A stretch of 64,000 nucleotides of DNA from Bdellovibrionota bacterium (GTDB taxonomy: Bacteria > Bdellovibrionota_C > UBA2361 > CAKMMH01). The position numbers were made by a program, and so were the translations under genes. Numbering within the stretch: position 1 is the stretch's first letter; each line of letters begins with the position of its first letter. The DNA lies in contig JAXFOK010000015.1 of NCBI GenBank assembly GCA_034180415.1, positions 2,205 to 66,204 of the forward strand. The letters run 5' to 3'. This document shows positions 1,235-29,497 of the stretch, in pieces. The notes under the pieces were generated by a model. It did no database searches, was not told the origin of the DNA, and worked only from the letters and a program-made list of their open reading frames with translations.

Positions 1235-1279
1235 AAATTTTTATAGTGGCTTTTTTATAAAAAAGGATAAATTAAAAAT

Positions 1280-2579: not shown

Positions 2580-2606
2580 TTAAATTTTTTAATTTCAAAA
2601 TAGTAT

Positions 2607-3908: not shown

Positions 3909-3918
3909 TTTTAAATTT

Positions 3919-4852: not shown

Positions 4853-4892
4853 AATCGCCAATGCATCTAAGATAACTATCAAAAGTTTATAT

Positions 4893-5080
4893 GGTCATTA
4901 CCCGAAGGGTAAACTAGAGCGAGCGTAAGCGAAGCGGCATAGGGCGTTACGTAGACACACGAATGTGTGGATGGCCAAGTAGACGAGCAATTTTGCGATA
5001 GTAAAATTGTGAAGGATACTTGGTTGTATGAGAATCACCATCAAAACAGCACCCCTTGCGGGTGCCCTAAGTAAAAAAAA
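4893..5080. ncRNA. GC-rich, highly structured intergenic element: candidate small RNA or structured repeat (strand undetermined)
   Basis: About 50% GC in a 30% GC genome. Perfect hairpins at ttacccgaagggtaa, cacacgaatgtgtg, ccaagta...tacttgg and gcaccccttgcgggtgc. No credible ORF: the 61-aa minus-strand ORF 4898..5083 is rejected. No RNase P, tmRNA or SRP signature motif. Confidence 0.3.
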
Positions 5081-5233
5081 CATAAACAGTATTTAGTACG
5101 ACGCATATAAGAGTTAGGGGGCTGATACTCGTTGCTACATCCCTGATTTAGCTCATTTTTCTTACCACTTATTGAAAATTATGCTTATCTTTTTTATAAT
5201 CTTTCTATTGTTTATAGGAGTTTAATTTTAGTC

Positions 5234-7924
5234 GTGACTACCGCATTTAACCTTAATTCATACAGTAATATTCCTCCGATGCTTGAGCAATATATAGAAT
5301 ATAAAAATGAGCATCCAGATTGCCTCATTTTTTGTCAAGTAGGTGATTTTTATGAATTATTCTTTGATGATGCGAAGGTCGTTGCAAAAACTTTAAATTT
5401 AACTTTAACTTCTAGAGATAAAAATTCTGAAAACCCAATCCCAATGTGTGGTGTGCCAATTGTCGTGATAGATGGATATATAGATAGACTCGTCGATCTT
5501 GGTTTCTCTGTAGCGATAGTTAGTCAAGCAGAGCTTGCCTCTGAAGCTAAAGGAATGGTTAAACGAAAACTAGAAAGAATTATAACACCAGCTGTTAGAC
5601 TTCTTGGAAGTGATAAATCAGAATCATCAATTGTTGCTTGCTTGTATTTTGATAACGAAAAAAATATTTCAATTGTTTTTTCAGATATCCAAAGCGCAAA
5701 ATTATATTATAGAGAAAATATTAATATAGAAAATTTAAAATCAGAACTTAGCCGAATTTCTCCAAAAGAAATAATTCTTCTTCAAAACTTAGGTGGTAAA
5801 AAGATCGACAGACGTGCTCTTTGGTTTAGAGATATAGAAAGAAACTTAAGCGACGCAGTTATAAAGATTAAACCAGAAACTTACATAAGCATTGATTTAA
5901 ATCCACTTAGAAAATTCGGAGATATAAAAGGTTACGCAAGCTTATCAAACGTTACTAAAAAAGCTACAAGATTGTTTTTTAACTATATTGATGAAGTAAC
6001 TGTAGAGAAAACATTACAAATTGAAGAAATAACAAAATGTAACTATGAAAGCATTATGGGGCTTGATGCAAGCGCTAGGATGAACTTAGAGCTTATTTCT
6101 AATCAAAAAGATGCAAGTAAAAAAAATACCCTTTTTGATTATATGGATATGACTGTAACAAAAGGGGGAGAAAAACTTTTAAGAAGTTGGATCTTAGCAC
6201 CTCTTTTAAATAAAGATGAAATATGTAAAAGACAAGATAGTGTAAAATTTTTACTAGATGAAGTTTCTATTCGTTATGAAATAAGAAATATTTTTAAATA
6301 TATATGTAATTTTTCTAAAATTGCATCAAGACTAGAAATGTCAATAGTTACACCAAGAGAACTAGGGGCGTTAAGAGATAGTTTAAGTGATATTCCAAAG
6401 ATCTTATTATTATTTAAAAATGATATTGATGAATTAGAAAATAAATTACCTGACAATTTAAAACGTATTCTAGAAAATTTAAATTATCCCAAAGAACTTT
6501 TAACACTTTTAAGGGATACACTTATTGAGAATCCAAGTAATTCTATAAATGAGGGAAATATAATAAGAGAAGGGTATGACGAAGAAGTTGATAGGCTTCG
6601 CTATGTAAGACAAAATGGGTGTTCTTGGATTTTAGACTTAGAAGCAAAAGAAAGAGAATTAAGTAAAATAAACTCACTTAAAATAAAGTTTAATAATGTT
6701 ATTGGTTATTTTATAGAAGTTACAAAAAGTAATGCAAATAAGGTTCCAAGTAATTATATTTTAAAGCAAAACACAACAAATACTACAAGATTTATTACAA
6801 GTGAATTAAAAGAACGAGAAAAAGAAGTTTTAGGTGCTGAAGCAAAGCTTTTCTCTTTAGAAAGAGATATCTTTTCAAAACTAAAAGATGACTTAATGAA
6901 GTATCTTCCGATCTTAAGAAGTCTTTCAGAAACTATATCACTTCTTGACCTTTACGCTTCTCTTTCTGAACTTGCAGAACAAGAAGCGTTAACTAGACCT
7001 CAAATAGTCGATGAAGAAATACTAGAAATTAAAGATGGCGTGCATCCAATTTTAAAAAGAGTATTAAAAAGTGATTTTATTCCAAATTCACTATCATTAT
7101 CTACTTTGCAAACTTTAGCTGTCCTTACAGGTCCTAATATGGGTGGAAAATCTACCTATTTAAGACAATGCGCACTTATTGTGATTATGGCGCAAATTGG
7201 AAGCTTTGTTCCTGCAAGAGAAGGAACAAAGATAGGAATTGTCGATAAAATTTTTGCCCGTCTTGGCGCATCTGATGATATGGAAGAAGGCGAGTCTACT
7301 TTTATGGTAGAAATGAGAGAAGCTTCTAATATTTTATCAAATGCTACAAATAGGTCTTTTGTCCTTATAGATGAAATAGGGAGGGGAACTGCGACCACTG
7401 ATGGTCTTTCAATTGCTGAGGCAATTTTAGAATACTTGCTTTTAAAAATAAAATGTCGAACGATATTTGCAACACATTTTCATGAGCTTACAGAGCTTGC
7501 TTACAAATATAAACAATTAAAAAATTTGTCGGTCGGTTCGATAGAGACAAGTGGTGAGGTCGTTTTTACTCATGAAATTGTTTCTGGGGCTGCAAAAAAA
7601 TCTTATGGTATCCATGTAGCAAAACTTGCAGGTATAAACAAAGGGATTTTAAATCGTGCTTCGCAAATATTAAATGATATGGAAAGAAAAAGTAATATAT
7701 CTTCAAATTCTCAGTTATCATTTTTTGAGCTTCAAGGGAATAATAATGAAAATATAACGGAATTATTTAAAGAAGATGAAAAGTTAGAGCTTCCTGAGGA
7801 TTATGATGCATTAAAAGAGCTTGCAAGAAATATAAAAAATGTAGATATTAATTCTATGACACCTTTAAACGCATTGGAGTTTTTAAATAATTTAAAAAAT
7901 AACGTAACTTTAATAAAAGAATAA
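5234..7924 (+). CDS. mutS: DNA mismatch repair protein MutS
   Basis: 896 aa. Walker A GPNMGGKSTYLRQ. Mismatch-binding N-terminal domain (FYELFFDDA). C-terminal HTH/dimerisation region. GTG start. Confidence 0.95.
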   Translation: MTTAFNLNSYSNIPPMLEQYIEYKNEHPDCLIFCQVGDFYELFFDDAKVVAKTLNLTLTSRDKNSENPIPMCGVPIVVIDGYIDRLVDLGFSVAIVSQAELASEAKGMVKRKLERIITPAVRLLGSDKSESSIVACLYFDNEKNISIVFSDIQSAKLYYRENINIENLKSELSRISPKEIILLQNLGGKKIDRRALWFRDIERNLSDAVIKIKPETYISIDLNPLRKFGDIKGYASLSNVTKKATRLFFNYIDEVTVEKTLQIEEITKCNYESIMGLDASARMNLELISNQKDASKKNTLFDYMDMTVTKGGEKLLRSWILAPLLNKDEICKRQDSVKFLLDEVSIRYEIRNIFKYICNFSKIASRLEMSIVTPRELGALRDSLSDIPKILLLFKNDIDELENKLPDNLKRILENLNYPKELLTLLRDTLIENPSNSINEGNIIREGYDEEVDRLRYVRQNGCSWILDLEAKERELSKINSLKIKFNNVIGYFIEVTKSNANKVPSNYILKQNTTNTTRFITSELKEREKEVLGAEAKLFSLERDIFSKLKDDLMKYLPILRSLSETISLLDLYASLSELAEQEALTRPQIVDEEILEIKDGVHPILKRVLKSDFIPNSLSLSTLQTLAVLTGPNMGGKSTYLRQCALIVIMAQIGSFVPAREGTKIGIVDKIFARLGASDDMEEGESTFMVEMREASNILSNATNRSFVLIDEIGRGTATTDGLSIAEAILEYLLLKIKCRTIFATHFHELTELAYKYKQLKNLSVGSIETSGEVVFTHEIVSGAAKKSYGIHVAKLAGINKGILNRASQILNDMERKSNISSNSQLSFFELQGNNNENITELFKEDEKLELPEDYDALKELARNIKNVDINSMTPLNALEFLNNLKNNVTLIKE

Positions 7925-7929
7925 TTTTT

Positions 7930-9231
7930 ATGAAAAAGATAAAATCAATATTTTTAACTTTAATATGTCTTCTTTGTCTAGTTTTATCCTTTAATTCTAC
8001 ACCATCATATGCATTAAGTGATATTACTTCATATAACAATGCAAATATTAGCATTAAAGTGTTTGAAAATTTAGAAAATGAATTTTTAAAATTAAGAAAT
8101 GAGGATCCACAAGTTGAAAGAATTAATGAGTGGGAAACATTAGCAAGAAAGTTTGAGATATTTTTTGACAAAAATGAAAGATTAAGCCAAAGTGCTCAAG
8201 GAATGTATGACGCTACAATATTGTACGAAGAGTTATATAAAAAAGTTAAATCTGAAAAATATTTAGATAGAACATTTATTATTATAGAAAAATTTTTAAA
8301 AGATTACTCTAATCATTATTTAGCAGATGATATATTAATTAAAAAAGGTGATATATATCTTTTTTTGCTAAATGATTATGAAAAGTCTAAAGATTGTTAC
8401 GATGAGGTAATGGAAAATTATCAGCAAGGTGATATGTATGAACTTGCAAAAGCAAGAATTAAATTAATTTTAGATAAAAAGAATAATAACACTACTTCAA
8501 ATTTTATTGGTCAACAGGTAAGAAATAATGGTGGAGAGGATAAATTTACAAATTCAAATTTCGTAATTGTAATTGACCCAGGTCATGGTGGAGAAGAAGG
8601 CGGTGCAAAAAACAATTCTGGCCTTATGGAAAAGGATTTAACGCTAGATATGGCTCTAAAACTTGAAAGGATTTTAAAGCAAAACACAGGATTTAATGTA
8701 TATCTTACAAGAAGAACAGATAAATTCGTTTCTTTAGGTGAAAGAACAGAATTTGCAAATGCAAAGCAAGCAGACCTTTTTATAAGCTTACACATAAACG
8801 CAAGTCCTAATAAGAGCGCGTATGGAATAGAAACATATTATCTTGATAATACAGACGATAAATCTAGTAGAAAATTAGCAGAGAGAGAGAATAAGTCGTT
8901 AACATTTGGAAATGGAAAAATTGATGATTTACAGTTCATGCTTAGTGATTTAATTCAAAGTGCTAAGCAAGAAGAATCAATAGTACTTGCAAATAATGTT
9001 CAAAGAGAATTAATAAAGCATTTAGATAAAAGATGGCGTGGAATAAAAAATTTAGGTGTTAAAAAGGCACCTTTTTATGTACTTGTTGGCGCGCACATGC
9101 CATGCATATTAGTTGAAACATTATTTATTGATAATTATCAAGATGCCAAGAAGTTATCAAATGAAAATTTTAGACAGGATGTCGCGCATGCTCTTTATGT
9201 TGCAATCCTTCGCTTTTTTGACGAGAAATAA
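7930..9231 (+). CDS. N-acetylmuramoyl-L-alanine amidase (Amidase_3 family) with an N-terminal helical/TPR-like domain
   Basis: Signal peptide. The C-terminal Amidase_3 core is VIVIDPGHGGEEGGA ... TRRTDKFVSLGERTEFAN ... SLHINAS. The N-terminal about 200 aa is helical with repeats. Confidence 0.8.
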   Translation: MKKIKSIFLTLICLLCLVLSFNSTPSYALSDITSYNNANISIKVFENLENEFLKLRNEDPQVERINEWETLARKFEIFFDKNERLSQSAQGMYDATILYEELYKKVKSEKYLDRTFIIIEKFLKDYSNHYLADDILIKKGDIYLFLLNDYEKSKDCYDEVMENYQQGDMYELAKARIKLILDKKNNNTTSNFIGQQVRNNGGEDKFTNSNFVIVIDPGHGGEEGGAKNNSGLMEKDLTLDMALKLERILKQNTGFNVYLTRRTDKFVSLGERTEFANAKQADLFISLHINASPNKSAYGIETYYLDNTDDKSSRKLAERENKSLTFGNGKIDDLQFMLSDLIQSAKQEESIVLANNVQRELIKHLDKRWRGIKNLGVKKAPFYVLVGAHMPCILVETLFIDNYQDAKKLSNENFRQDVAHALYVAILRFFDEK

Positions 9232-10034: not shown

Positions 10035-11255
10035 ATGTTAAATATTTCAGATATTACCAATAAGCTTATAAAAAGTGCAAAGAATTTTTATGATGTTTCA
10101 AATATTGATATTGTATTTAAACCTTCTTTAAATTTATCAATAGGAGATTTCTATTCTGATTTTTTGATTTTATTAGCAAAAAAATATAAAAAAAATGTAA
10201 ACGAAATATTTGATAATATTACAAAGGACTTTACTTGTGAGAATTGTGATATATCTTTAGTCGGGGATTATGTAAATATAAGACTTAAAAGTTTTAAGTT
10301 AAAAGATATAACGCCAATGAATCCTGATGTAAAAATTAATCATTCGATTGTTTATGTTCCTGTACTTAATACATATTCTAAATCTTTGTTTTATAGACTA
10401 GCTTTTAAAGGATTTCTTAATAGTATTTTATTTAAAAATTTTAATGTTAATTCAAAGTTATATTTAGGAAATGAGCAGTATTGTATTAATTTTGATGACT
10501 ATAAGAGTTTTCTTAATACCTTAGAGGATGTTTATAATAAATGTATAAGTGATAAAGATATCATTAATATAATTAATACAATAACTAAAAATAACAATGA
10601 AGATTTATTTATTACTCTTTTAGGCCCTAATACCTATTATCAAAGGGAGTTATCTAAAGAATTTTTTAAAACAATACAAGGACAAAATCATTTTGTTTTT
10701 AAATTTCATTCAAAAGATTGGGGAAATGTTTATAAGGAAGATGAGCATAAGCTATGTGATTTTATAAAGAGTATCGATAGTTACACTACATTTATGAATT
10801 TAACATATATGCTTTCAAAAGATTTAGATTTTAAAGAAATAAACTTTGAAGATTCACGAATTAATACTCAAGAGAATTTTATATATTTTTTAAATTTAAC
10901 CTATAATAGGATTAACAAATTTTTTACAAAGATTGATAATACCTCATCAAGTGAATTTGAATTTTTAAGAGATGATAAATTAAGAAACATAATACTTAGA
11001 AGTTATTTATTCAAGGTTACATTGTATGACTCTTTGATTTCTGGGGATATTGGGAAATGGATTCTGGGGGTAGATAATCTTTTAAGGGAAGTTAATTTTG
11101 TCTTAAATAGTCCTAATTTTCGCTATAAACTTACTAATAATTCAAAGGTAAATACTGGTTTGTTAATTACTGATTCTCAATCAAATACTGTTAGTATTAA
11201 GGATAAGTTTGTCTTTAATTTTATTTTAGACCTATTTCAAGATTTCTTAAAGTAG
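10035..11255 (+). CDS. Hypothetical protein (406 aa), no recognisable motif
   Basis: Long uninterrupted ORF with typical N/K-rich composition, placed 10 nt after the previous gene. Confidence 0.4.
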   Translation: MLNISDITNKLIKSAKNFYDVSNIDIVFKPSLNLSIGDFYSDFLILLAKKYKKNVNEIFDNITKDFTCENCDISLVGDYVNIRLKSFKLKDITPMNPDVKINHSIVYVPVLNTYSKSLFYRLAFKGFLNSILFKNFNVNSKLYLGNEQYCINFDDYKSFLNTLEDVYNKCISDKDIINIINTITKNNNEDLFITLLGPNTYYQRELSKEFFKTIQGQNHFVFKFHSKDWGNVYKEDEHKLCDFIKSIDSYTTFMNLTYMLSKDLDFKEINFEDSRINTQENFIYFLNLTYNRINKFFTKIDNTSSSEFEFLRDDKLRNIILRSYLFKVTLYDSLISGDIGKWILGVDNLLREVNFVLNSPNFRYKLTNNSKVNTGLLITDSQSNTVSIKDKFVFNFILDLFQDFLK

Positions 11256-12897: not shown

Positions 12898-14640
12898 ATG
12901 AGCAACTCTTTATTAGAACCTAACAAAGACATATTATCACGTATTGGTCATTACGTAGTAACAGATATTGGCGCAAAGAGAGAAACTAATCAAGATAATT
13001 TTATCGTCGTTTATGGTGAAAATTTCATATACTATGTCGTTTGTGATGGTATGGGCGGAACTGATGGCGGAGAAATCGCTTCCCAAATGACGGTTTCCTA
13101 TATAGATTCTGAATTAAAAGGTAAAAAAATAAGTGACATTGAAGATGTAAAAAAAGTAGTATATGAAGCTAATGAGAGAGTTTTCGAATATGGCATGGAA
13201 CATAAAGAAGTTCAAGGCCTAGGTACAACAATAACAAGTTTACTTGTGATGCCAAAAAGTTCATGGACTTTAAATGTTGGTGATTCAAGAGTTTATAAAA
13301 TCTTTGGCGATACGATAAGTCAAATTACAGAAGATGATACAGTTTTAAATGAGCTTATAAAATCTGGTGTTATATCTCAGGAAAAAGCAAAAAGTCATCC
13401 CATTTCAAATATGCTTACTAAGACTATCGGACAGGGAAAAAGTCTTGAGATTGAAACAACGAGACTCGGATTTTTAGATTATAGGGAAAGATTTATTTTA
13501 TGTTCAGATGGCTTATATAATATGGTTTCTGATAATGAAATCATGGAAATAATAAGCAATAATGATGTTAAAGAAGGTGTCAGAGGGTTAATAAAAAAGG
13601 CTAATGATAATGGTGGAATAGATAATATTACTGCGATGCTTGTAGGTGTATTTAACCAAAGAATATTATCTGATGAAGAAGAAAATAGCTTAATTGAACA
13701 ATCAAAAGCAAGGGTCGTAAAACCACAAGAGATATCAAATAATATAGATTACAATAAGCTTACTCAAAGGTTTGAGGAATTTAAAAATAGTGATGATGGC
13801 AAATATAAGAAATTATGGAATAAAACAGTTACTGACCACAATAACAATGAAAAAGTTGATGTGTCTAGTAGTGATTTAAGAGTATTAAGCCATTTAATTA
13901 TTTTAGTTGTATTGATAGTTTTAGGTTGTATTTTTGTAATTCCTAATAACAGTGTTAAACTTTCTAGGCAAATTCAAGAAGATAAATTTGAGGATAAAAT
14001 AGGCAATATTAAAGTTACAGAAGATGATTATAAGTTTAGGTTGAATTTTGAAGATAAAAAGTATGACGATAATGATAAGTTTATAGATTATTCTAAAAGA
14101 GAAATTATAGCTTATAATGAGATATTGGATATTGTTAAAAAAAGAGAAAGTTTATCAGAAGAAAAATTGTTAAGGCAAAAAAAAATATTATTAGATAGTA
14201 ATAAGGCTATAGAATCACAAATTAATAAATTGTCAGAAAAGATAAATGATATTAGAGAATATAATAACAAGAATTTATTAGATATTGCACGCGAGATATC
14301 AGAAAATGATGAAAATGTTAAAAAATTATCAGATGATTTTTTAAGTTTTTCATATGATATTCTTAATAATGATTTAAATCAAAATGATTACAATAAAATC
14401 AAAGAAGAAAAATTAAATAGGTTATATAAGCAAGTTGAGAGCTATTTTTATGATAAGATTTCTAAATATGAAATTCAAATAAAGTCTATGCAAGATAAAT
14501 TGCTTAGTAATCAATTTAATCTTTCAATTGTTGATTTAAAAATGCAATATGCAAAATTATTAGTTGATAATGAAGAAGAAAAATTAAAAGATTTTGAGGC
14601 AAAAATTAATACATTAAAGCAAAGAGTAAGCAAATCTTAA
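12898..14640 (+). CDS. PP2C-family Ser/Thr phosphatase with a C-terminal TM segment and a long coiled-coil domain
   Basis: N-terminal PPM motifs (YVVCDGMGGTDGGEIAS, ...CSDGLYNMVSDNE..., DNITAMLV). TM helix LSHLIILVVLIVLGCIFVI. The C-terminal about 230 aa is heptad-like. Confidence 0.8.
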   Translation: MSNSLLEPNKDILSRIGHYVVTDIGAKRETNQDNFIVVYGENFIYYVVCDGMGGTDGGEIASQMTVSYIDSELKGKKISDIEDVKKVVYEANERVFEYGMEHKEVQGLGTTITSLLVMPKSSWTLNVGDSRVYKIFGDTISQITEDDTVLNELIKSGVISQEKAKSHPISNMLTKTIGQGKSLEIETTRLGFLDYRERFILCSDGLYNMVSDNEIMEIISNNDVKEGVRGLIKKANDNGGIDNITAMLVGVFNQRILSDEEENSLIEQSKARVVKPQEISNNIDYNKLTQRFEEFKNSDDGKYKKLWNKTVTDHNNNEKVDVSSSDLRVLSHLIILVVLIVLGCIFVIPNNSVKLSRQIQEDKFEDKIGNIKVTEDDYKFRLNFEDKKYDDNDKFIDYSKREIIAYNEILDIVKKRESLSEEKLLRQKKILLDSNKAIESQINKLSEKINDIREYNNKNLLDIAREISENDENVKKLSDDFLSFSYDILNNDLNQNDYNKIKEEKLNRLYKQVESYFYDKISKYEIQIKSMQDKLLSNQFNLSIVDLKMQYAKLLVDNEEEKLKDFEAKINTLKQRVSKS

Positions 14641-14666
14641 GTAATGTGGTAGACTCACAATATTTC

Positions 14667-14695
14667 TAAGGAAACACTGATTAATTTAAAATATC
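14667..14695. repeat. Family-B half-element (aaggaaacactgattaat)
   Basis: Shares aaggaaacactgattaat with 14798..14870 and, in inverted form, with 40014..40052. Confidence 0.5.
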
Positions 14696-14797
14696 TCGCA
14701 GAAGCCTATTATCTAAAATCCTATTCCTATATAGCAACATAAATTATATTTTTTTCGAAGAATTTTATATGAAGCTATTTTATTTTTTAGTAATTTA

Positions 14798-14870
14798 AAG
14801 AAAACACTGATTAATTCAAAATATCGTGTAAGGAGTCGACTAAAATTTTGCATTAATCAGTGTTTCCTTA
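14798..14870. repeat. Family-B palindromic element (14-bp perfect inverted repeat aaacactgattaat ... attaatcagtgttt)
   Basis: Perfect inverted repeat with an about 40-nt spacer. The 3' module gtcgactaaaattttgcattaatcagtgtttcctta is almost identical to ggcgactaaaactttgcatcagtgtttcctta at 40014..40052. Confidence 0.6.
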
Positions 14871-14888
14871 ATTTTAATTTTCTATTAA

Positions 14889-15995
14889 TTGGTTTTTATT
14901 ATGAAAAATTTTTATGATTATTTATGTTTATCATTAATTGCTATGGAATTAAAGCCTAGCGAAAGTAGGGAGTTTAGTTTGTTTTTATCAAATGAAAATA
15001 TTTATGAAAAGGAAAATAGTATAAATTTAATTTCAAAAAATTTTCCTAAAATAATTGAAAAGTTTCAGAATAAATTAGTTAAAGAAACTATAATGAATAA
15101 AATATCAAAATGGGAAAGCCAAGGGATAAAATTTTTATTATTAGGTACTAATGATTATCCAATATCATTAAAAAGTATTTTTAATCCGCCACTAGTTTTA
15201 TTTTATAAAGGAATATGGAAAAAGGATTATGATTATAATAACTCGGTTGCTATTGTCGGGTCTAGGAAGGCTTGTTTGATGCAATCTAAATTTGTTAGTG
15301 AGCTTGCAAAAAGTTTAAGTTATTCTAACATTTGTATAGTTAGTGGTTTAGCTCAAGGGATTGATGCGGCATCTCATATAGGAGCTCTTGGTAATCCTTC
15401 AAATTTATTTCCAACAATTGCAGTTTTAGGAAGCGGGGTAAATTATATTTATCCATCTGTGCATAAATATTTAGCACATAAAATAATTGAAGAAGGTGGG
15501 GTAATATTAAGTCATTTTTTACCCGACACTTCGCCACTTCCATATAATTTTTTAGATAGGAATAGAGTGATCTCAGGTCTTTCAAAAATTATAATTGTTG
15601 CACAAGCTGCTATGAAAAGTGGTGCGCTTTCTACAGCTAGATATGCTCTTGAACAGGGAAGGGATCTTTTAGCTGTTCTTGGCCCAGTGTATGACGAAGG
15701 ATTTGAAGGTTCAAATAATTTAATTACTCAAGGAGCAATCCCTATTGCTAATATAGATGATTTTTATAAGTTATATCCTGAGTATTTAAAAGATATGAAT
15801 CTTGATAATATTGAAAGTACCATTACTAATGAACCTGAAAAAACAGTTTATGAATATATAAAAAAACGAAAAAAAGTTACACGAAGTGAATTATATGAAA
15901 AATTTATAGATCTTGATTTACCATTAATAATTATTAATTTACAAGCTGAAAATTATATAGATTCACTGCCTGGTGAGGAATATGTGGTAAGGTGA
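14889..15995 (+). CDS. dprA: DNA processing protein DprA (Smf)
   Basis: Rossmann-like core with SGLAQGIDAASHIGAL and RNRVISGLS motifs. The C-terminal winged-helix extension is typical of DprA. An alternative start at 14901 (MKNFYD) is possible. Confidence 0.85.
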   Translation: MVFIMKNFYDYLCLSLIAMELKPSESREFSLFLSNENIYEKENSINLISKNFPKIIEKFQNKLVKETIMNKISKWESQGIKFLLLGTNDYPISLKSIFNPPLVLFYKGIWKKDYDYNNSVAIVGSRKACLMQSKFVSELAKSLSYSNICIVSGLAQGIDAASHIGALGNPSNLFPTIAVLGSGVNYIYPSVHKYLAHKIIEEGGVILSHFLPDTSPLPYNFLDRNRVISGLSKIIIVAQAAMKSGALSTARYALEQGRDLLAVLGPVYDEGFEGSNNLITQGAIPIANIDDFYKLYPEYLKDMNLDNIESTITNEPEKTVYEYIKKRKKVTRSELYEKFIDLDLPLIIINLQAENYIDSLPGEEYVVR

Positions 15996-16062
15996 CAGGG
16001 AACAGGTTTCAAGTGTTTCCTGAGACCCGAACTCTGAAACCTATTTTCTGAAATTTAATTTA
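15996..16062. repeat. Family-C element (GGTTTCA / CTGAAAC motifs) immediately after the dprA stop
   Basis: ggaacaggtttcaagtgtttcctgagacccgaactctgaaacctattttctgaaat. Related motif strings occur at 18502, 31838, 40080 and 43925. Confidence 0.5.
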
Positions 16063-16106
16063 ATCATTAGCAACTTTTTAAATATTTCTTCGATAAACTT
16101 TATAGT

Positions 16107-16670
16107 ATGAGTGTAATAATATCTTATCAGAACAATTTATCGCTAAAAAATGAATATCTAGAAATTAGAGGTTTAGGTAGTAAAATAGGATTAGATAGAA
16201 CAGGAACTATAACAAATAGTAATGTTATTGAAGATTATTTTTCAATTTATTCAATAAATGAAGAATATGTACTAAATGTTAATGATGAAAATATATTACT
16301 TCCTAAATACTATAAAATGAATATCAATAATATGGATTTCTTTTTTTATACTATTTCACCTACATGTGAAAGTTTATCGTATGCTTGTTTTGATAAAGAT
16401 TTATCTCAAGTAAAAGAAAGAGATTTTATTACGTTAACTATTAATCATAATCTTAAAATATTAGATATAAAACTATATGAAGGGGTTGAGTATTATTTAG
16501 GCTCATCTAAAGTTTCTTCTATCTTTCTTGATGAAAATTTTGTTGCGCCTTATCATACTAAAATTAAGTATATAGATAAGAAAATACAAGTTATCGATGT
16601 TGCTGGAAGTCTTAAAAAAGAAGACGACTATTCTTACATATTAAATGATATTTTATTAAGATTTTCTTAG
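16107..16670 (+). CDS. Hypothetical protein with a possible C-terminal FHA-like domain
   Basis: The C-terminal segment ...LGSSKVSSIFLDENFVAPYHTKIKYIDKKIQVIDVAGS... weakly resembles the FHA core (G-R..D..L.D..VSR.HA.I......V.DLGS.NG). Weak call. Confidence 0.3.
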   Translation: MSVIISYQNNLSLKNEYLEIRGLGSKIGLDRTGTITNSNVIEDYFSIYSINEEYVLNVNDENILLPKYYKMNINNMDFFFYTISPTCESLSYACFDKDLSQVKERDFITLTINHNLKILDIKLYEGVEYYLGSSKVSSIFLDENFVAPYHTKIKYIDKKIQVIDVAGSLKKEDDYSYILNDILLRFS

Positions 16671-16708
16671 TTGCAAATATGCGAATAAAAGAAACTATTT
16701 TAAACTTT

Positions 16709-17050
16709 TTATTTTGAATTATTACTTGCTGCAGCTAGTGCGTCTAATTCACCGTCTGGAGAAACTATCTGAGTTACCCTTATACCAAATTTATCATTTA
16801 CTACTACTGCTTCACCTTGTGCTAATAATTTATTATTAACTCTAATATCTAAAGGTTCTTCTGGAAGTTTATTTAATTCTATAATTGAACCTTTTCTTAA
16901 TTTTATAAGTTTATCAAGAGTGCACTCAACTCTTCCTAGCTCTACAGATACTATGAGTTCTACATCATAAAAGAATTGAAGTGTACCAACTTTATCTTGA
17001 ATTGAAGCTGATTCAACAATATTCTCTTTTTCTTTTTTTTGCTCTTCCAT
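16709..17050 (-). CDS. FliN/SpoA (SctQ C-terminal) domain protein, orphan
   Basis: ELIVSVELGRVECTLDKLIKLRKGSIIELNKLPEEPLDIRVNNKLLAQGEAVVVNDKFGIRVTQI is a clear SpoA/FliN fold signature. 113 aa. No other flagellar or T3SS switch genes are adjacent. Confidence 0.75.
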   Translation of the reverse strand: MEEQKKEKENIVESASIQDKVGTLQFFYDVELIVSVELGRVECTLDKLIKLRKGSIIELNKLPEEPLDIRVNNKLLAQGEAVVVNDKFGIRVTQIVSPDGELDALAAASNNSK

Positions 17051-17235
17051 AAATTTAACCTAAGTAAAAAACTTTTCTTAGCTTATTTGATGCAAATTAT
17101 ATGAAAAAAGACTAAAAAAAGTCACAATTTTTAATATTTACTTAAAATTTTCTTCGAATTTTACCGATAAATGAAATAATCAAGGTTTATAGGTATTATA
17201 AAAAATTAGTTTTAATTGATAGATTTACGACAAAT

Positions 17236-18501
17236 ATGGAACAAATAGCTGGAAAATATAATATTATTAGGTTGTTAGGTAAAGGAGCTACTGGGGAAGT
17301 GTACCTTGTAGAGCATAATGACCTAAAGTTAGAATATGCACTAAAACTTTTGTCAAAGGAAGTTTCAAATAACGATGTGGTCGTAGAAAGATTTATAAAA
17401 GAGGCAAGATTACTAGAAAAATTTTCCCATAAAAATACTGCAAGATTAAGAGATTTTGGAAAAAATGATGATGGCCGTTATTACATGACTACTGATTTTT
17501 GTAAGGGGATTACATTAAGCGAGCTTGTAAAGAAAAGAGGGGCTATTAATTATAATTTAGCTCTTAAAATCATGATTGATATTTTAGATGTTCTATCTTG
17601 CGCACATAAAGAAGGGGTAGTTCATAGGGATATAAAATCTGAAAATGTGATAGTAAATTTTAATGAAAATTTTGATGATTATGATGAGTTAAAAGTGCTT
17701 GATTTTGGTATAGCCAAAATGAAGCAAGATATTAAATTAAATGATACAAAGACCATAGATGGTTCTGCATTAGGGACTCCTCAATATATGGCTCCAGAAC
17801 AAGCAGCTGGTGAACCTAATCTTGATCATAGGATTGATATTTATTCGGCTGGAATTGTTTTATATGAGCTTCTTGCTGGAAAAGTTCCTTTTTTTGGGGA
17901 AACTATAGTTCAAACGCTTTTAATGCATTTAACTCAGCCGATTCCTCCTTTTGATGAATCATTAAACATTCCAGAAGATGTTTCTAATATTGTTAATAAA
18001 GCATTACAAAAAATCCCTAACAATAGATATCAAACTGCTGAAATGTTTATGCAAGATTGTAAAAAGATTTTAAATTGTGAAAACGTTGGGGAAGTTTCAG
18101 GTGATAATGGTGCGTATGTTATAAATGATGAAAAAAAAGAGAAAACGAAAATTCTATGTATTGATGATAATCAGATGATTTTAAATATAATTAGCCATAT
18201 TTTAACAAAAGAGGGATTTGAAGTATTTACTACAAATGATCCGAGTACACTTCATAGTTATTTATTCCAAGAAAGAATAGATTTGTTGATTTCAGATATA
18301 AATATGCCAAGTATTAACGGTAATGATTTGTGTAAAATGTTAAAACAAACCATGCCAAGCCTTAAAATAGCACTTTTTTCGAATATTCCAGAACAAGACT
18401 TAGAAGCGCTTGCAAAAGATGCGTCAGCAGATGCTTGGATTTCAAAAAACGAAAAGCCAAATGTGTGGCTTGAAGGGATATATAAACTACTAGGAAGATA
18501 A
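17236..18501 (+). CDS. Hanks-type Ser/Thr protein kinase fused to a C-terminal response-regulator receiver (REC) domain
   Basis: Kinase motifs are intact: GKGATGEV, ALKLL (VAIK-like Lys), HRDIKSENV, DFG, APE. The C-terminal about 120 aa is KILCIDDNQMILNIISHIL ... DLLISDINMP ... IALFSN (REC with phospho-acceptor Asp). Confidence 0.85.
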   Translation: MEQIAGKYNIIRLLGKGATGEVYLVEHNDLKLEYALKLLSKEVSNNDVVVERFIKEARLLEKFSHKNTARLRDFGKNDDGRYYMTTDFCKGITLSELVKKRGAINYNLALKIMIDILDVLSCAHKEGVVHRDIKSENVIVNFNENFDDYDELKVLDFGIAKMKQDIKLNDTKTIDGSALGTPQYMAPEQAAGEPNLDHRIDIYSAGIVLYELLAGKVPFFGETIVQTLLMHLTQPIPPFDESLNIPEDVSNIVNKALQKIPNNRYQTAEMFMQDCKKILNCENVGEVSGDNGAYVINDEKKEKTKILCIDDNQMILNIISHILTKEGFEVFTTNDPSTLHSYLFQERIDLLISDINMPSINGNDLCKMLKQTMPSLKIALFSNIPEQDLEALAKDASADAWISKNEKPNVWLEGIYKLLGR

Positions 18502-18692: not shown

Positions 18693-21002
18693 ATGAAAAT
18701 GTTACAAAGAGAAAAATTATTTTTAAGTTGTGTTTTTAGTCTTGCATTTATTGTTTTAACAAATAATGGAAATGCATTGTTAATTGATGATTTTAAGGAT
18801 GTTGATAATAATGGAAATCCTCTTGGACTGCAATCAAGCGTAAATTCAACTAATAGTACAAGTTGGAATGATGTTGGGTTAGCAAATGTAGTGGGCGGTT
18901 GTCGTAAAGTTGTTTTGAGTGGAGATGGAAGTGGAGTTTTTTCAGCTGGAAAGTATTCTCACAACCAAGATGATGCAAAAACTGCAAAGTCAATAATAAC
19001 ATGGGGGGAATGTGAAGACGGTACAGTGATGTCTGAAGTAGATTTCACAAAAGATGGTTCTAAATATTTTGTAGTCAAGTATAATAGTAATGATAGCGTG
19101 GATTATAGAGGAAAAATATATTTAAGATTATGGGATAGCTCTGATCATGAAGCAAATGTTCAGTGTGATCGTTATGAATCCGAGGAAGTGTACAAATGTA
19201 TGTACAAAAAATATACAGATGTTGATGTCGAGCTAGATAAGATTGTAAAGATTCAGTTGATAATGGATGGTTCAAGTGCATCTGGTTGGGATTTCGGTAT
19301 TGAGTCAGTTTTGACTGGAAATAGCCAAAATACAGTTTGTGGTGTTGTTCCTACTGCATCAAATAATTATGGTGCTAAAGATGAATGTGGATTCTGTCCA
19401 AATGATATAATGCCTGATAAATATCAATATGGTCAAGGAAAAGATGAGTGTGATTATTGTCCAAATGATACTTTGCCTGCTAACTATCAATATGGTGATG
19501 GAAAAATTTGTCGTAATTCATGTGATGTAAATCAAAATTGCGGATGGTGTCCAACAATCGATAATCCAGGAAAAGCTCATCAGAGGTATACTTGTAAGCA
19601 ATGTGATGATGGAATGGATAATGACGGAAAGGGTGATATTGACTGTGCTGATCCTCAATGCTTAAAGGGGGTTAATGGAAGCTGTGATCCTAACTATAAT
19701 AGTGAAGCACCACAGTGTAGCAATAAGAAAGATGATGATAATGATGGTAAGGTAGATAAAAACGATCCAGCATGTCTTGATGAAAATGGCAATTATAACC
19801 CAGACCTTGATGATGAATCAGATGAACCTGCTTGTTCTGATAAAGCAGATAATGATGGTGATGGTTTGATTGATTCAAAAGATCCTGGTTGCTATGCGAA
19901 AAATCCAAATACTGGAAAATATGAATATAAGCCAAATAAAAAGAGTGAAGAAGGACCAAATACTGAATGTTCAGATTCAAAAGATAATGATGGTGATGGA
20001 TATATTGATAGTAAAGATCCTGATTGTTGGTATACTGATTCAATTAAGTTAGGTGGAACTAAAGACTATTCAAATGAATCACCTTTTTATGATTGGAATC
20101 CTTGGGATCTTTCAGAAAGTGGTGCAAGAAAGTATCAATGTTCAGATGGAAAGGATAATGATGATGATGGGTTAGTTGATGCGCAAGATCCTGGATGTTT
20201 AGATGATAGTGGTAATTGGAATCCTAAGAAAGATAGCGAAATTAATTCAGATGATGGAAAACCAGAATGTTCAGATGGTAAGGATAATGATAAAGATGGA
20301 TATATAGATTATCCTGATGATCCAGGTTGCACATCAAAGGATGATGATTCTGAAAATGACAACATTACAAAGCCTGAATGTTCTGATGGTATTGATAATG
20401 ATAAAGATGGAAAAATTGATGAAGCTGATACTTCATGTTGGGTTTATGATAATAATGGAAATCCAATTAAGTACGATCCTAATATCGATGATGAATCAGG
20501 ATGTACAACAACTTCTAATGTAAGTAACTTAGATGTTGATAATGAAAGATTAGCTACAATTGGTTTAAATGCTGCTTTATATTTAAAGAGATTCCATGCT
20601 AATTCAAGTAATGAATATAAGAGAACTACTCTTTCTGCAAAACGTGCTGGAACTAAGATTAGTAAGGAAATTAATAAGGTGGTGACAGATTTGAAATCTT
20701 ATTCAGTTTCTTGTAATAGTCAGACAGGTTCTTCATGTAGAAATAACAATAATACAGAGCTTAACAAGTTTTCACAACAAGTTAGTCAATTAAATAAACT
20801 TGTTCGTCGTGCACAAAGAAGAGGTTTGTTCTTTAAGAAGAATTTTGAAAGCAAGGCAATTTCAAAAGCTAAGCAACAAAAAGCAGGTTACAAAAATGCA
20901 AAAGCTACTATGACTAATAACAGAAAGGCTGGAACAAGAATAACTGTTTATAATAATATAAATGCCAAGGTTAGTAGTATTAAGTCATTAGCTATTTGCT
21001 AA
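18693..21002 (+). CDS. Secreted protein (769 aa) with tandem Cys-bounded Asp-rich calcium/metal-binding-type repeats (TSP3/MopE-like) and a basic Lys/Arg-rich C-terminal domain
   Basis: Signal peptide. CPND-containing units (CGFCPNDIMPDKYQYGQG, CDYCPNDTLPANYQYGDG). At least 7 units of C-S-D-x-K-D-N-D-x-D-G-x-(I/V)-D-x-x-D-P-x-C (e.g. CSDKADNDGDGLIDSKDPGC, CSDSKDNDGDGYIDSKDPDC). Basic tail rich in K/R/N/S. Confidence 0.8.
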   Translation: MKMLQREKLFLSCVFSLAFIVLTNNGNALLIDDFKDVDNNGNPLGLQSSVNSTNSTSWNDVGLANVVGGCRKVVLSGDGSGVFSAGKYSHNQDDAKTAKSIITWGECEDGTVMSEVDFTKDGSKYFVVKYNSNDSVDYRGKIYLRLWDSSDHEANVQCDRYESEEVYKCMYKKYTDVDVELDKIVKIQLIMDGSSASGWDFGIESVLTGNSQNTVCGVVPTASNNYGAKDECGFCPNDIMPDKYQYGQGKDECDYCPNDTLPANYQYGDGKICRNSCDVNQNCGWCPTIDNPGKAHQRYTCKQCDDGMDNDGKGDIDCADPQCLKGVNGSCDPNYNSEAPQCSNKKDDDNDGKVDKNDPACLDENGNYNPDLDDESDEPACSDKADNDGDGLIDSKDPGCYAKNPNTGKYEYKPNKKSEEGPNTECSDSKDNDGDGYIDSKDPDCWYTDSIKLGGTKDYSNESPFYDWNPWDLSESGARKYQCSDGKDNDDDGLVDAQDPGCLDDSGNWNPKKDSEINSDDGKPECSDGKDNDKDGYIDYPDDPGCTSKDDDSENDNITKPECSDGIDNDKDGKIDEADTSCWVYDNNGNPIKYDPNIDDESGCTTTSNVSNLDVDNERLATIGLNAALYLKRFHANSSNEYKRTTLSAKRAGTKISKEINKVVTDLKSYSVSCNSQTGSSCRNNNNTELNKFSQQVSQLNKLVRRAQRRGLFFKKNFESKAISKAKQQKAGYKNAKATMTNNRKAGTRITVYNNINAKVSSIKSLAIC

Positions 21003-21003
21003 T

Positions 21004-21388
21004 AAAATTGACGATGCATCCAAGATTGCGTCGTTATTCGAGAGAGATGCCGTCCTCGCTGTACTTAATAGTACAGCTGTGGGTGCATCCTCTCGAATGC
21101 CTAGCACTCTTGGCGCCTCGTCAATTTTATATATTAAGACGATGCATGTGATGATGCTACGTTCATTTTGAGGGATAAACGGTCCTTGCTGTACTTAATA
21201 GTACAGCTGTGGGAGCATCCTCCCGAATGCCTAGCACTCTTGGCGCCTCGTCAATTTTATATATTAAGACGATGCATGTGATGATGCTACGTTCATTTTG
21301 AGGGATAAACGGTCCTTGCTGTACTAATCGTACAGCTGTGGGAGCATCCTCTCGAATGCCTAGCACTCTTGGTGCCTCGTCAATTTTA
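21004..21388. repeat. Tandem array of three family-A palindromic elements (units about 121 nt)
   Basis: Copy 1 is 21004–21128. Copies 2 and 3 (21129–21249, 21250–21388) form a 121-nt direct repeat (atattaagacgatgcatgtgatgatgc...). Each has a central hairpin gctgtacttaatagtacagc and a 3' module gaatgcctagcactcttggcgcctcgtcaatttt. Termini are inverted complements. The ORF 21163..21408 is a repeat artefact. Confidence 0.8.
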
Positions 21389-21514
21389 TAAAATGGACCT
21401 TTTAACAACCCCTAAAAGGTAAAAGTTTTAATGGGTTGGTGCGTAATTAAAGTTTGCTGTGAAAAATTTCGATATTGAGTATAGGTTGGATTATATTTTT
21501 TTAAGTTTTAAGCT

Positions 21515-22762
21515 ATGAAATTATTAATTATTGATGTTTCAACAGAAGCTCAAGCAAAGTGTGCTAAAAAAATAGAGCCTTTTAATAGAAGTGATGTCGA
21601 AATGCTTGATTTAAAAATCAAGCTTGCAAACGAGCAAACTTATAAAGATATTCTAGAAGGAGCAGATGTTGCAATACTTGGTGCAGGGTTAGGTGAGTCT
21701 GCAATAGTGGTCGCAAGAGAGATTGCAAGCGTGTGCCCTTGGATGAATATTATAATGTTTGTTAAAGAGTCATTATACGGTGGAAGCTCTTTTAGAAGCG
21801 CACATTCAGTGGGCGTAAGAAAAGTTTTTTCTGATAACGCAAGTCCTCTTGATTTCTTGCAAGAACTTGTAGCAATTCACAGTGAATTTAGAAAAGAAGG
21901 TCGAGCCAGGGAAGGTATAGTTGTCGCGGTGAATCATGCCAAGGGAGGCGTCGGAGCAACTTCAATTTGCGCAGCTCTTGCAGAGGTTTGTGGAGTTTAT
22001 AATAAAAGGACACTTCTTTGGGATTTAGATGTCGAGACAAGAGATTTAAGTCGCTCTCTTACTGCAAGTGGAACAGAAGCCAAAGTAGTTTCATCGTGGG
22101 TTAATGGTTCAAGAGAAATTTCAAGAGAATCTTTAAAAGATGCACTTTTACCTATAAGTAATGAAGTTTCAATATTAATTCCACCAGATTGTATGGCTGA
22201 GTCTATGGATTTAGTGTGTCATACAGATAGTATAGCTCTTTGTAGTAGAATTTTAGAGCTTTCAAGAGTGCTTTTTGACGTAATTATTATTGATACTGGT
22301 GGAAGAATGGGACCTGCTACTGGAGCAGTAGTAAGAAATAGTGATAAAACTTTAATTGTTATTGATGATACGATTTTGGGACTAACAGCTGTCGATCTTT
22401 ATTTAAATTTTATTAAGAGTTTAGTTGGAACTCCAGATAGAATTAATTTTTTAATAAATCAATATACTGGAAATCTTCTTACAAAAAATCAGATTGAAGC
22501 TGAGTTAGAACCTATTCATAGGTTAGGACATGAGGTTTGGAGCTTAGATCCAGTGTATATGGACCCAAAAGCTAGCCTTTGGTCAGCAAGTGGTAAGACG
22601 CTTTATAGTTTAGGTAATAGAAATACAAGAGTTGCTCTAGAAAAGATGGCTGTAATTCTAGGACTTACTATTCAACATGGCGTAGTAAAGAGAGAAAACC
22701 AAGCAAATAATAACCAAAAAGAAAAAGGACATAAGTTTTTGAATTTTTTTAATAAAAAATAA
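21515..22762 (+). CDS. tadZ: TadZ/CpaE-type pilus-assembly ATPase (ParA/MinD-like, N-terminal degenerate receiver domain)
   Basis: N-terminal MKLLIIDVSTEAQAK REC-like fold. Deviant Walker A AVNHAKGGVGATSICAALA. 415 aa. Located at the head of the flp operon. Confidence 0.8.
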   Translation: MKLLIIDVSTEAQAKCAKKIEPFNRSDVEMLDLKIKLANEQTYKDILEGADVAILGAGLGESAIVVAREIASVCPWMNIIMFVKESLYGGSSFRSAHSVGVRKVFSDNASPLDFLQELVAIHSEFRKEGRAREGIVVAVNHAKGGVGATSICAALAEVCGVYNKRTLLWDLDVETRDLSRSLTASGTEAKVVSSWVNGSREISRESLKDALLPISNEVSILIPPDCMAESMDLVCHTDSIALCSRILELSRVLFDVIIIDTGGRMGPATGAVVRNSDKTLIVIDDTILGLTAVDLYLNFIKSLVGTPDRINFLINQYTGNLLTKNQIEAELEPIHRLGHEVWSLDPVYMDPKASLWSASGKTLYSLGNRNTRVALEKMAVILGLTIQHGVVKRENQANNNQKEKGHKFLNFFNKK

Positions 22763-22935: not shown

Positions 22936-23109
22936 ATGTTAAGAATTTTTAGTAAGAAAGAAAAAGGTGCTTCACTCGTTGAGTACGCGTTACTAGTTGC
23001 TTTAATTGCATTAGGATCAATGGCTGCTATGAGATTACTATCAAATAATATTTCAGGTGCATTCTCTCAATCAGGTAGTATATTACAAGATGTAAGTAAA
23101 GCAGGTTAA
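22936..23109 (+). CDS. flp: Flp-family pilin precursor (57 aa), absent from the supplied ORF track
   Basis: MLRIFSKKEKGASLVEYALLVALIALGSMAAMRLLSNNISGAFSQSGSILQDVSKAG carries the Flp signature (G/ASLVEYALLVALIAL: prepilin-peptidase site G|A, conserved E and Y). Strong RBS aaggagaaagtaaaATG. Sits directly upstream of cpaB/tadA/tadB/tadC. Confidence 0.8.
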   Translation: MLRIFSKKEKGASLVEYALLVALIALGSMAAMRLLSNNISGAFSQSGSILQDVSKAG

Positions 23110-23127: not shown

Positions 23128-24039
23128 ATGAAGCCACTTAGTTCTCAACCAGATAGTAATTCTAAGCTAATTTTTTTAGTTGCAATTGTTGTAATGCTTT
23201 TGCTAGGTGGCTTTCTTTTAATTTTTTTCGGATTTAGTAATAAATCTAATAATACCGGACAAAATTTTGATAATCCACAAAGTGAATTGAATGATAATAT
23301 AAATACTAGAGCAGAAAATAATGCAAATGTTGAAAGAACAGTTCAGGTTTTAGTTACAATAAGAGATATTAAAAATGGCGAAAAATTAGATCCTACAATG
23401 TTTAGGAAAGAAACAAGGCCAGAAAATTTTGTTAAACCTGATGATTATAGAGATTTTTCACAGATAGATGGTTTTTTTGCAAAATCAGATATTGGATTTA
23501 GAGAAACTATAGACCCAAATAAAGTATCAAGAAAAAAACCAGTAAATACTATAACGGCTAATATTCCTGAAGGTTACAGAGCTGTTACAATTAATGTTGA
23601 TGTGACAAGTAGTGTAGAAGGTTGGGCAAGAGCAGGAGCGTTTGTTGATGTTGTATGGAATTCAGTGATAAATGGAAAACCAGCTGCTACTGTAATTATT
23701 CAAAATGCAAAAATTTTATCAGCAGAAAGGCAAATTGAGGCTAATCCACAAGAGGGACAGGCTCCTGTTCCTAGTACTGTAACACTTCTTGTGCTTGCGG
23801 ATGATGCAACAAAAATTCATCTTGCAGAAACCACTGGTAAGTTAAGTTTACAGTTAAGAGGGGACGATGCTGAAAAAGGATTTGGGGCAAGAACTTCCCT
23901 TACAATAGATGATTTACTTGATAAGAATAATGGTAAAAAAGATAATAAAAAGTATGATGCTATTGTAAAAATTAAAGGTAAAAATGGTAAAATGGAAAGG
24001 TGGGGATTAAAGGATGGAAGTCTTGTTCTAATTGAGTAA
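23128..24039 (+). CDS. cpaB: CpaB/RcpC-family Flp pilus assembly protein
   Basis: N-terminal TM anchor, then a SAF-like region (VQVLVTIRDIKNGEKLDPTMFRKETRPENFVKPD) and a beta-rich C-terminus, at the canonical position between flp and tadA. Confidence 0.65.
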   Translation: MKPLSSQPDSNSKLIFLVAIVVMLLLGGFLLIFFGFSNKSNNTGQNFDNPQSELNDNINTRAENNANVERTVQVLVTIRDIKNGEKLDPTMFRKETRPENFVKPDDYRDFSQIDGFFAKSDIGFRETIDPNKVSRKKPVNTITANIPEGYRAVTINVDVTSSVEGWARAGAFVDVVWNSVINGKPAATVIIQNAKILSAERQIEANPQEGQAPVPSTVTLLVLADDATKIHLAETTGKLSLQLRGDDAEKGFGARTSLTIDDLLDKNNGKKDNKKYDAIVKIKGKNGKMERWGLKDGSLVLIE

Positions 24040-24057
24040 TTTTAAAAGAAGTTATAA

Positions 24058-25515: not shown

Positions 25516-25555
25516 CATAATATATATGTTTTTTAAAAAAAGGTTTTAAGAAAAA

Positions 25556-29496: not shown

Positions 29497-29497
29497 T

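Follow-up and report, generated by a model that had tools for sequence, protein, structure and literature searches.

In Myxococcus xanthus, the Tad-like Kil pilus works together with a needleless type III secretion system, T3SS* (PMC8460266, PMC12075869). The 64-kb stretch of DNA analyzed here (the window) stems from an uncultured member of the Bdellovibrionota. It contains a block at positions 12898–18501 that encodes a PP2C phosphatase, DprA, an FHA-fold protein, a stand-alone FliN and a Hanks-type Ser/Thr kinase with a receiver domain (kinase-REC), and further downstream a Tad-like operon that includes a gene for an FHIPEP protein of the SctV/FlhA family. As with Kil and T3SS*, a Tad-like machine is associated here with type III export-apparatus components and FHA-domain proteins, and the lineages concerned are predatory or related delta-type bacteria. 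In Myxococcus, however, Kil and T3SS* are encoded in separate large clusters, T3SS* being complete in both its export apparatus and its sorting platform, whereas in the window a single SctV-like gene and a pseudokinase gene are embedded in the Tad operon, with no SctRSTU or SctN nearby. Moreover, the Kil ATPase carries an N-terminal FHA fusion, while the TadA/CpaF of the window shows a T2SSE domain only (Pfam, E ≤ 0.001). No Kil-type short secretin and no Tip minor pilins turned up in the Pfam scans, beyond which they were not examined further.

The operon also resembles classical Tad/Flp loci such as Aggregatibacter tad and Caulobacter cpa, because TadZ/CpaE, Flp, RcpC/CpaB, TadA/CpaF, TadB, and TadC are encoded in the usual order. 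Unlike these loci, it has the FHIPEP and pseudokinase genes appended and a PP2C-FHA-kinase head prepended. Neither a secretin (RcpA/CpaC) nor a prepilin peptidase (TadV/CpaA) was identified by Pfam in the cluster or among the window's open reading frames of at least 100 amino acids (aa), and both may be encoded elsewhere in the genome. The H1 type VI secretion system (H1-T6SS) of Pseudomonas aeruginosa is likewise an envelope nanomachine encoded together with a Hanks kinase (PpkA), a PP2C phosphatase (PppA), and an FHA protein (Fha1). Here, in contrast, the machine is Tad-like, the FHA protein of the window's family has lost its phosphothreonine-binding residues, and the kinase bears a receiver domain. 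By analogy, threonine phosphorylation through PpkA/PppA/Fha1 is a plausible model for the function of the head.

Outside the export-gate ring of flagella and injectisomes, no role of FHIPEP proteins is known to us, and among the papers searched in full text none links an FHIPEP gene to a Tad/Flp operon. The Tad machine of Bdellovibrio is the subject of a 2026 preprint, in which FHA and histidine-kinase neighbors are mentioned, but neither FlhA nor any type III component. We propose, with chances that we judge to be about even, that the 5.6-kb block is a family-specific synteny block and not one machine, in which fliN is an ordinary flagellar gene and the phosphatase, FHA-fold and kinase genes form a remodeled regulatory head of the Tad operon. 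The novelty then sits in the adjacent Tad-FHIPEP operon, the content of 12898–18501 being mostly ordinary. Tentatively, and with considerable doubt, we also consider a wider reading for this clade of at least 43 Bdellovibrionota species. It would have fused an FHIPEP gate of a third class (neither FlhA nor SctV) into a Tad-like machine, as a single-operon counterpart of Kil/T3SS*; a membrane pseudokinase would be coupled to this gate, and PP2C, FHA protein and Hanks kinase would control it. In the low-GC gut family to which the window belongs, two-component input and flagellar wiring through fliN would have been added.

Conservation of the Tad-FHIPEP operon

A scan of a genome collection with TadZ yielded 43 species-level loci (designated by L numbers), all from uncultured Bdellovibrionota-type metagenome-assembled genomes (MAGs). 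The window proteins were mapped onto these loci, and each denominator below counts the loci with room for the feature concerned. The conserved order consists of the PP2C-FHA-kinase head followed by tadZ-flp-rcpC-tadA-tadB-tadC-FHIPEP-pseudokinase. FHIPEP lies directly after tadC in 26 of 26 loci and is followed by an ortholog of the pseudokinase gene in 22 of 22. The conserved order also recurs in genomic contexts that were fetched independently via FHIPEP homologs. The trio of PP2C, FHA, and Hanks kinase genes directly precedes tadZ in 31 of 33 loci, the exceptions being the window family (L014) and L033, and the head is therefore not a chance neighborhood.

In the window, all Tad core components (TadZ, Flp pilin, RcpC, the TadA ATPase, TadB, and TadC) are encoded on the forward strand. 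The first gene of the operon, tadZ/cpaE (21515–22762), encodes a receiver-like N-terminus and a ParA/MinD-type ATPase (AAA_31, E = 3.3e-12; CbiA), with 58–83% identity across the 43 species loci. It is followed by the gene of an Flp-type pilin (22936–23109) with a G/ASLVEY motif, for which Pfam Flp_Fap was detected on the same gene in L001–L005. The genes rcpC/cpaB, tadA/cpaF, tadB, and tadC occupy positions 23128–27346 (RcpC, E = 3.9e-18; T2SSE, 3.2e-33; T2SSF, 1.2e-12 and 3.2e-07). Like TadZ, TadA (57–84%) is unusually conserved in the clade, whereas identities for TadB, TadC, RcpC, and FHIPEP range from 27 to 65%.

The FHIPEP gene is followed on the same strand by the gene of a 783-aa protein (29477–31828); the end of the former and the start of the latter overlap by 20 nucleotides, which couples the two translationally. 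According to the alignment, this protein has lost the VAIK lysine, the HRD aspartate and the DFG aspartate and is thus a pseudokinase; its orthologs in L012 and L013 have Pfam Pkinase matches. A transmembrane segment at residues 307–333 is followed by a HEAT-like C-terminal part, and the C-terminal motif YKxxFWFIRKRE is conserved. An operon for a type IV filament that includes an FHIPEP gene throughout a clade would suggest a hybrid envelope machine, for which the conserved PP2C-FHA-kinase head provides a testable control logic.

Class of the Tad-linked FHIPEP protein

An earlier note on this DNA had pointed to an FlhA paralog 10 kb away from the block. An FHIPEP gene does lie about 10 kb off (27412–29496, forward strand; FHIPEP, E = 3.3e-156), but its product stays below the FlhA cut-off and scores higher with the SctV model: 521 bits were obtained with hrcV/SctV (TIGR01399, cut-off 692) and 472 bits with FlhA (TIGR01398, cut-off 772). 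The FHIPEPs of nine relatives gave 536–597 bits for SctV and 489–547 bits for FlhA, all under both cut-offs. In 10 of 10 Tad-linked FHIPEPs the SctV score exceeds the FlhA score, with 61–71% of the FlhA cut-off being reached. Among solved structures, YscV and SsaV matched slightly better than FlhA; most of these structure matches span the transmembrane half only, and therefore the cytoplasmic domain is regarded as divergent. A 3–5-residue insertion of the three FlhA references is absent from 13 of 13 Tad-linked FHIPEPs, as it is from the SctV references. In a neighbor-joining tree of the transmembrane region, which is no more than indicative as it contains only five references, the Tad-linked FHIPEPs are monophyletic and placed next to YscV and SsaV.

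Like FlhA and SctV, these proteins have the full-length FHIPEP architecture, and their transmembrane half is 44–50% identical to either, which equals the distance between FlhA and SctV themselves. They differ from both by scores under the cut-offs of both models, a clade of their own, a divergent C-terminal domain and the position of their gene in a Tad operon. Because of the preference for the SctV model, the sub-cut-off scores, the lack of the FlhA insertion and the separate clade, the Tad-linked FHIPEP is, judged from its sequence, a distinct class and not a stray FlhA.

It could, however, still be the flagellar FlhA of these organisms, which weighs against our proposal and is the core of an explanation that regards everything in the region as ordinary. 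FHIPEP would then be the divergent FlhA of the clade, co-transcribed with a polar Tad operon, fliN a scattered flagellar gene, and the PP2C, FHA-like and kinase genes unrelated neighbors of a kind abundant in Bdellovibrionota. Flagellar genes indeed occur in the window family and in the clade (see below), some of these FHIPEP proteins are named FlhA by NCBI, and no second FHIPEP was found in the window or in any of the related loci examined. In L040, where flagellar genes adjoin the Tad locus, FliQ and FliR also remain somewhat below their own equivalog cut-offs, which suggests that proteins of this clade are generally divergent. Yet FliP, FliQ, and FliR of L040 prefer the flagellar over the Sct models, whereas the FHIPEP encoded on that contig scores, like all others, higher with the SctV model, and the FlhA insertion is missing. 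Furthermore, the median identity of FHIPEP within the clade (43–50%) is lower than that of the hook protein FlgE (60–65%), although an FlhA less conserved than the hook protein would be unusual by general expectation. The neighbors of FHIPEP are tadC and the pseudokinase gene in every locus with room for them and never flhB, flhF, or flhG, and the head recurs too regularly before tadZ to be explained by chance. Taken together, we consider it unlikely that the region is ordinary throughout. The window and the 10-kb flanks of the 43 loci do not contain any Sct genes.

If FHIPEP does work with the pilus machine, as we propose, the role of this protein family would extend beyond flagella and injectisomes, and the recently discovered cooperation of a Tad-like pilus with T3SS-like export in bacterial predation would gain genetic support from a second phylum. 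If, instead, this protein is the sole FlhA of the clade, what remains is a more modest finding, namely an unusual operon that couples flagellar export to pilus assembly.

The 12898–18501 block and a proposed remodeled regulatory head

The window has a GC content of 30% and belongs, according to sequence comparison, to a low-GC, gut-associated family of uncultured Bdellovibrionota MAGs (the window family). Named homologs derive from Bdellovibrionota, Oligoflexia, or Bdellovibrionales MAGs. An identical FliN protein is encoded on many metagenome contigs, predominantly from pig-gut studies, and in the MAG GCA_028724725.1, where the gene order of the window is kept. The close relatives compared within the family are L065, L007 (GCA_050952645.1), and L057 and L015 (both GCA_964534945.1); their FliN is 88% (L065), 85% (L007), and 77% (L057) identical to that of the window, and TadZ of GCA_964534945.1 is 74% identical to the window TadZ.

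The earlier note had described the block as a module of four genes. All four are present, but dprA lies inside the supposed module as a fifth gene. On the forward strand, the first gene (12898–14640) encodes a 580-aa membrane-bound PP2C Ser/Thr phosphatase (Pfam PP2C_2, E = 1.9e-12; 47.6 bits, cut-off 24). With 225.3 bits it narrowly misses the cut-off of the NCBIfam Stp1/IreP equivalog (230), and the sequence therefore identifies it as a PP2C, yet not as a named Stp1. The catalytic domain (approximately residues 22–251) is followed by a single transmembrane segment predicted from hydropathy (322–355) and a 228-aa tail. As the tail contains no proline and only one glycine and is rich in K, L, D, and E, it plausibly forms a coiled coil. 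The second gene, dprA (14889–15995; DNA_processg_A, E = 3.4e-66), encodes DNA-processing protein A and is a housekeeping bystander, although its position within the block is unchanged in L007, L057, and L065. It is followed by the gene of the 187-aa FHA-fold protein (16107–16670), by fliN on the opposite strand (16709–17050), and by the forward-strand gene of the 421-aa kinase-REC (17236–18501). In L065, a gene for a 100-aa 23S-rRNA-intervening-sequence protein (7928–8230) sits between dprA and the FHA-fold gene, which indicates that the block tolerates insertions.

The kinase-REC fusion contains a Hanks-type Ser/Thr kinase domain (Pkinase, E = 8.9e-47; 160.1 bits, cut-off 31.7) and a C-terminal receiver domain (Response_reg, E = 7.1e-19; 68.5 bits, cut-off 30.2). 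The kinase motifs HRDIKSEN, DFG, and APE are present in the translation, and the acidic and phospho-acceptor pocket of the receiver is intact (DD, SDINMP, SK). We rejected a specific relationship of the receiver to CheY, as PhoP, CpxR, and CheY all score at about 40–45 bits; the domain is a generic receiver.

The 187-aa protein had been noted as a possible FHA-type reader of phosphothreonine. The fold holds, but the proposed function does not. With Pfam FHA (PF00498) the protein reached 14.3 bits (cut-off 20.7; E = 0.058), and the proposed confirmation by hidden Markov model thus failed. An exhaustive homolog search retrieved only seven relatives, two of which are distant homologs (P0244 and P0245) that exceed the Pfam FHA cut-off. 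The top PDB matches of the family profile were all FHA structures (CT664, YscD, Slr1951), though weak ones (E = 0.03–0.3). An AlphaFold2 model built from the family alignment (pLDDT 85.8, pTM 0.76) consists of two beta-sandwich domains, and the best 50 Foldseek matches of this model in the PDB were all FHA domains (TM-score on target 0.6–0.69). According to the model, the protein has an FHA fold. However, in the alignment the residues for phosphothreonine binding are replaced in eight of eight family members: the Gly-Arg motif is changed to GS, Ser-x-x-His to A/K/R-x-x-H, and only the glycine and the histidine are invariant. The protein is for this reason probably not a phosphothreonine reader. 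Among its best matches are two T3SS proteins, YscD and CT664, whose FHA domains do not bind phosphothreonine.

The window order is PP2C, [dprA], FHA-fold protein, [fliN, opposite strand], kinase, [repeat protein], tadZ, which is the canonical PP2C-FHA-kinase-tadZ order with insertions (in brackets) and with the trio on the same strand. It is plausible that the trio corresponds by position to the canonical head, with which it may be orthologous. For the 187-aa protein we claim positional correspondence and not orthology, because no BLAST match to the canonical head FHA proteins was obtained at 1e-5 and the architecture differs: the canonical proteins consist of a SRARNRTVMLTPE motif, a linker and a canonical FHA domain with an intact phosphothreonine pocket. 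This difference weighs against the trio being a remodeled head. So does the fact that PP2C and kinase of the window share only about 30–34% identity with the proteins of the canonical head, a similarity that is no more than generic, and that GCA_964534945.1 has the PP2C-to-FliN block and the Tad operon on separate contigs, so that physical linkage of the two is not needed. Synteny within one family is, moreover, weak functional evidence.

If the trio is the remodeled head, the phosphatase of the window family would have gained a transmembrane segment and a coiled coil, the FHA protein would no longer read phosphothreonine, the kinase would have gained a receiver domain, and dprA, fliN, and the gene of a secreted repeat protein would have become interleaved. 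The kinase and PP2C may set the Ser/Thr phosphorylation of components of the Tad-like machine, and this phosphorylation state might gate the assembly or activity of the machine, by analogy with PpkA/PppA/Fha1 and the T6SS; in most of the clade, the canonical FHA protein would read it. The ring formed by the SctV-like FHIPEP would, together with the pseudokinase as its partner, be part of the inner-membrane Tad-like machine and not of a flagellum. The earlier idea of a type III-like component under Ser/Thr phospho-signaling is thereby partly supported, in spirit, with the Tad-like pilus operon as the putative partner and not FliN.

FliN, flagellar genes and the fliN/kinase pair

The 113-aa product of fliN resembles flagellar FliN in having a full SpoA domain (FliMN_C, E = 4.2e-23), which bears out the earlier identification of a stand-alone FliN/SpoA gene. 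It scores above the flagellar equivalog cut-off (TIGR02480, 93.7 bits; cut-off 84.05), and it is 52–60% identical to named FliNs of ordinary flagellated bacteria. With 85–88% identity in sister genera it is among the best-conserved proteins of the region. Unlike the usual flagellar fliN, the gene is monocistronic and in a fixed head-to-head position with the kinase-REC gene; it does not belong to a fliM-fliN(-fliOPQR) operon, since neither fliM nor fliOPQR is adjacent, and no further flagellar structural genes occur in the 64-kb window. The earlier note had considered FliN/SpoA genes outside flagellar or T3SS operons to be rare. In this lineage they are not: fliN stands alone in the window, L007, L057, and L065 and also outside the family in L009, L011, and L058, and a stand-alone fliN is thus a habit of the lineage. 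In L009 (GCA_020434495.1, 6448–7395), it is divergent from a gene pair for a low-molecular-weight phosphotyrosine phosphatase and a fructosamine kinase, a second instance of fliN adjoining phospho-signaling genes.

Only L040 has fliN within a fliMNOPQR operon. There, motA-?-motB-fliM-fliN-fliO-fliP-fliQ-fliR (1–5819 of CAYQVO010000005.1) immediately precedes the PP2C-FHA-kinase-Tad-FHIPEP module and runs in the same direction, and FliM, FliN, and FliP exceed the flagellar cut-offs. As L040 alone among the 43 loci has a flagellar operon adjoining the Tad-FHIPEP locus, this adjacency appears to be incidental. In L058, whose FliN is 62% identical to that of the window, flgD and flgE are located about 5 kb from the stand-alone fliN. 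With the FlgE of L058 as query, a homolog (P0274) was retrieved from GCA_964534945.1, a member of the window family, where it is encoded in a flgD-flgE-fapA...fliL locus with 30.6% GC. P0274 shares 72% identity with a further FlgE (P0272), in keeping with how far other window proteins have diverged from those of GCA_964534945.1; the contigs that encode P0272 have 30–34% GC, the gene order of the P0274 locus, and study cohorts shared with the pig-gut contigs of the window. Amino acid composition, a weak signal alone, was usable for recognizing window-family FlgE only in combination with identity clustering and context look-ups. From these genes in relatives and in the window family, it follows that the lineage is very probably flagellated, with dispersed flagellar genes. 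The fliN of the window is, on sequence grounds, most likely an ordinary scattered gene of the flagellar C-ring.

This bears directly on the interpretation offered in the earlier note, in which FliN and FHIPEP constitute a repurposed, non-flagellar type III-like sorting platform under phospho-control, unless the organism has a normal, complete flagellar gene set of which these are scattered members. The latter is largely what the relatives show: flgD-flgE-fapA and fliL are present in GCA_964534945.1, and motAB-fliMNOPQR in more distant relatives. The idea could draw on the short distance (at most 11 kb) between FliN and the atypical FHIPEP in the window, in L007 and probably in L065, and on the resemblance of the 187-aa FHA domain to those of YscD and CT664. 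For FliN, however, repurposing is unsupported, because the protein passes the flagellar cut-off and relatives carry flagellar genes, with hook genes in the window family itself. In addition, 40 of the 43 Tad-FHIPEP loci have no FliN within 10 kb, the FliN of L040 belongs to a normal fliMNOPQR operon, FliN and FHIPEP are on separate contigs in GCA_964534945.1 and HKST-UBA25, and no SctK, SctL, or SctN was seen. The sorting-platform interpretation, largely refuted already, thus appears very improbable, and where flagellar genes are dispersed, as in this lineage, a fliN that stands alone should be taken as no evidence of such a platform.

The divergent transcription of fliN and the kinase gene (185-bp gap, opposite strands) agrees with the earlier note and is maintained in all four window-family lineages (window, L065, L007, and L057). 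The orientation of the pair is the same in the window and L065, whereas in L007 and L057 both genes are inverted together. Between the window and L007, FliN (85%) and kinase-REC (80%) are among the most conserved proteins of the region, as compared to 48% identity for PP2C. In the intergenic alignment, a TAAA-N17-(A/G)CCGA(T/C) block is recognizable on the kinase strand, of which CCGA and the spacing are kept in L007 and partly in L057. In the window this block corresponds to a candidate sigma-28-type promoter (TAAA-N17-CCGATAA, 17143–17170, forward strand) that faces the kinase-REC gene. It is the sole match in 64 kb with N15–17 spacing, but 0.55 matches are expected by chance, a point against any weight placed on it in our proposal, and with N14–16 spacing no match was found in the window. 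The promoter assignment is thus only suggestive.

Receiver domains are classic C-ring ligands, as exemplified by CheY with FliM and FliN. The conserved pair might accordingly reflect control of the flagellar switch, in which kinase-REC, antagonized by PP2C, phosphorylates or docks on FliN or FliM independently of CheY. This would explain the head-to-head arrangement of fliN and the kinase gene, and it is favored by the persistence of the pair through an inversion, the high conservation of both proteins and the sigma-28-like motif. Nevertheless, the pairing is absent outside the window family (L009, L011, L040, and L058), the receiver is not specifically CheY-like and an interaction of the kinase with FliN or FliM is putative, so that we regard switch control as quite improbable. 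Under the remodeled-head reading that we prefer, the kinase of the window family would receive two-component input through its receiver, and its position head-to-head with fliN, maybe together with a sigma-28-type promoter, would tie control of the pilus to the motility program. The receiver domain and the tie to fliN suggest that motility and pilus activity may be coordinated.

Between the kinase-REC gene and tadZ, the window encodes a secreted acidic double-disulfide repeat protein (18693–21002, forward strand; NF033662, seven repeats, E = 7.6e-43) with an N-terminal signal-like sequence. In L007, L057, and L065, its gene likewise comes after the fliN/kinase pair, and the protein varies in length from 763 to 769 aa among the same-species strains L001–L006. 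Just upstream of tadZ, a relatively GC-rich 130-bp tandem repeat (21052–21390) is present in 2.6 copies with 96% identity. A terminator-like hairpin (TTGGCGCCTCGTCAA and then a run of T) is present in every copy. The repeat matches nothing in Rfam and may be regulatory or mobile in nature. Scans for tRNA genes and for Rfam families at gathering score returned none in the 64-kb window, and a promoter/terminator consensus scan was uninformative in this AT-rich sequence (60 promoter-like sites, 60.2 expected). Several open reading frames at 45411–50656 are without any Pfam match. A 406-aa protein encoded at 10035–11255, whose position is conserved among relatives, matched solely the N-terminal domain of arginyl-tRNA synthetase (E = 1.7e-05), with no catalytic domain detected. 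Finally, a Fic-domain protein is encoded at 51276–52463.

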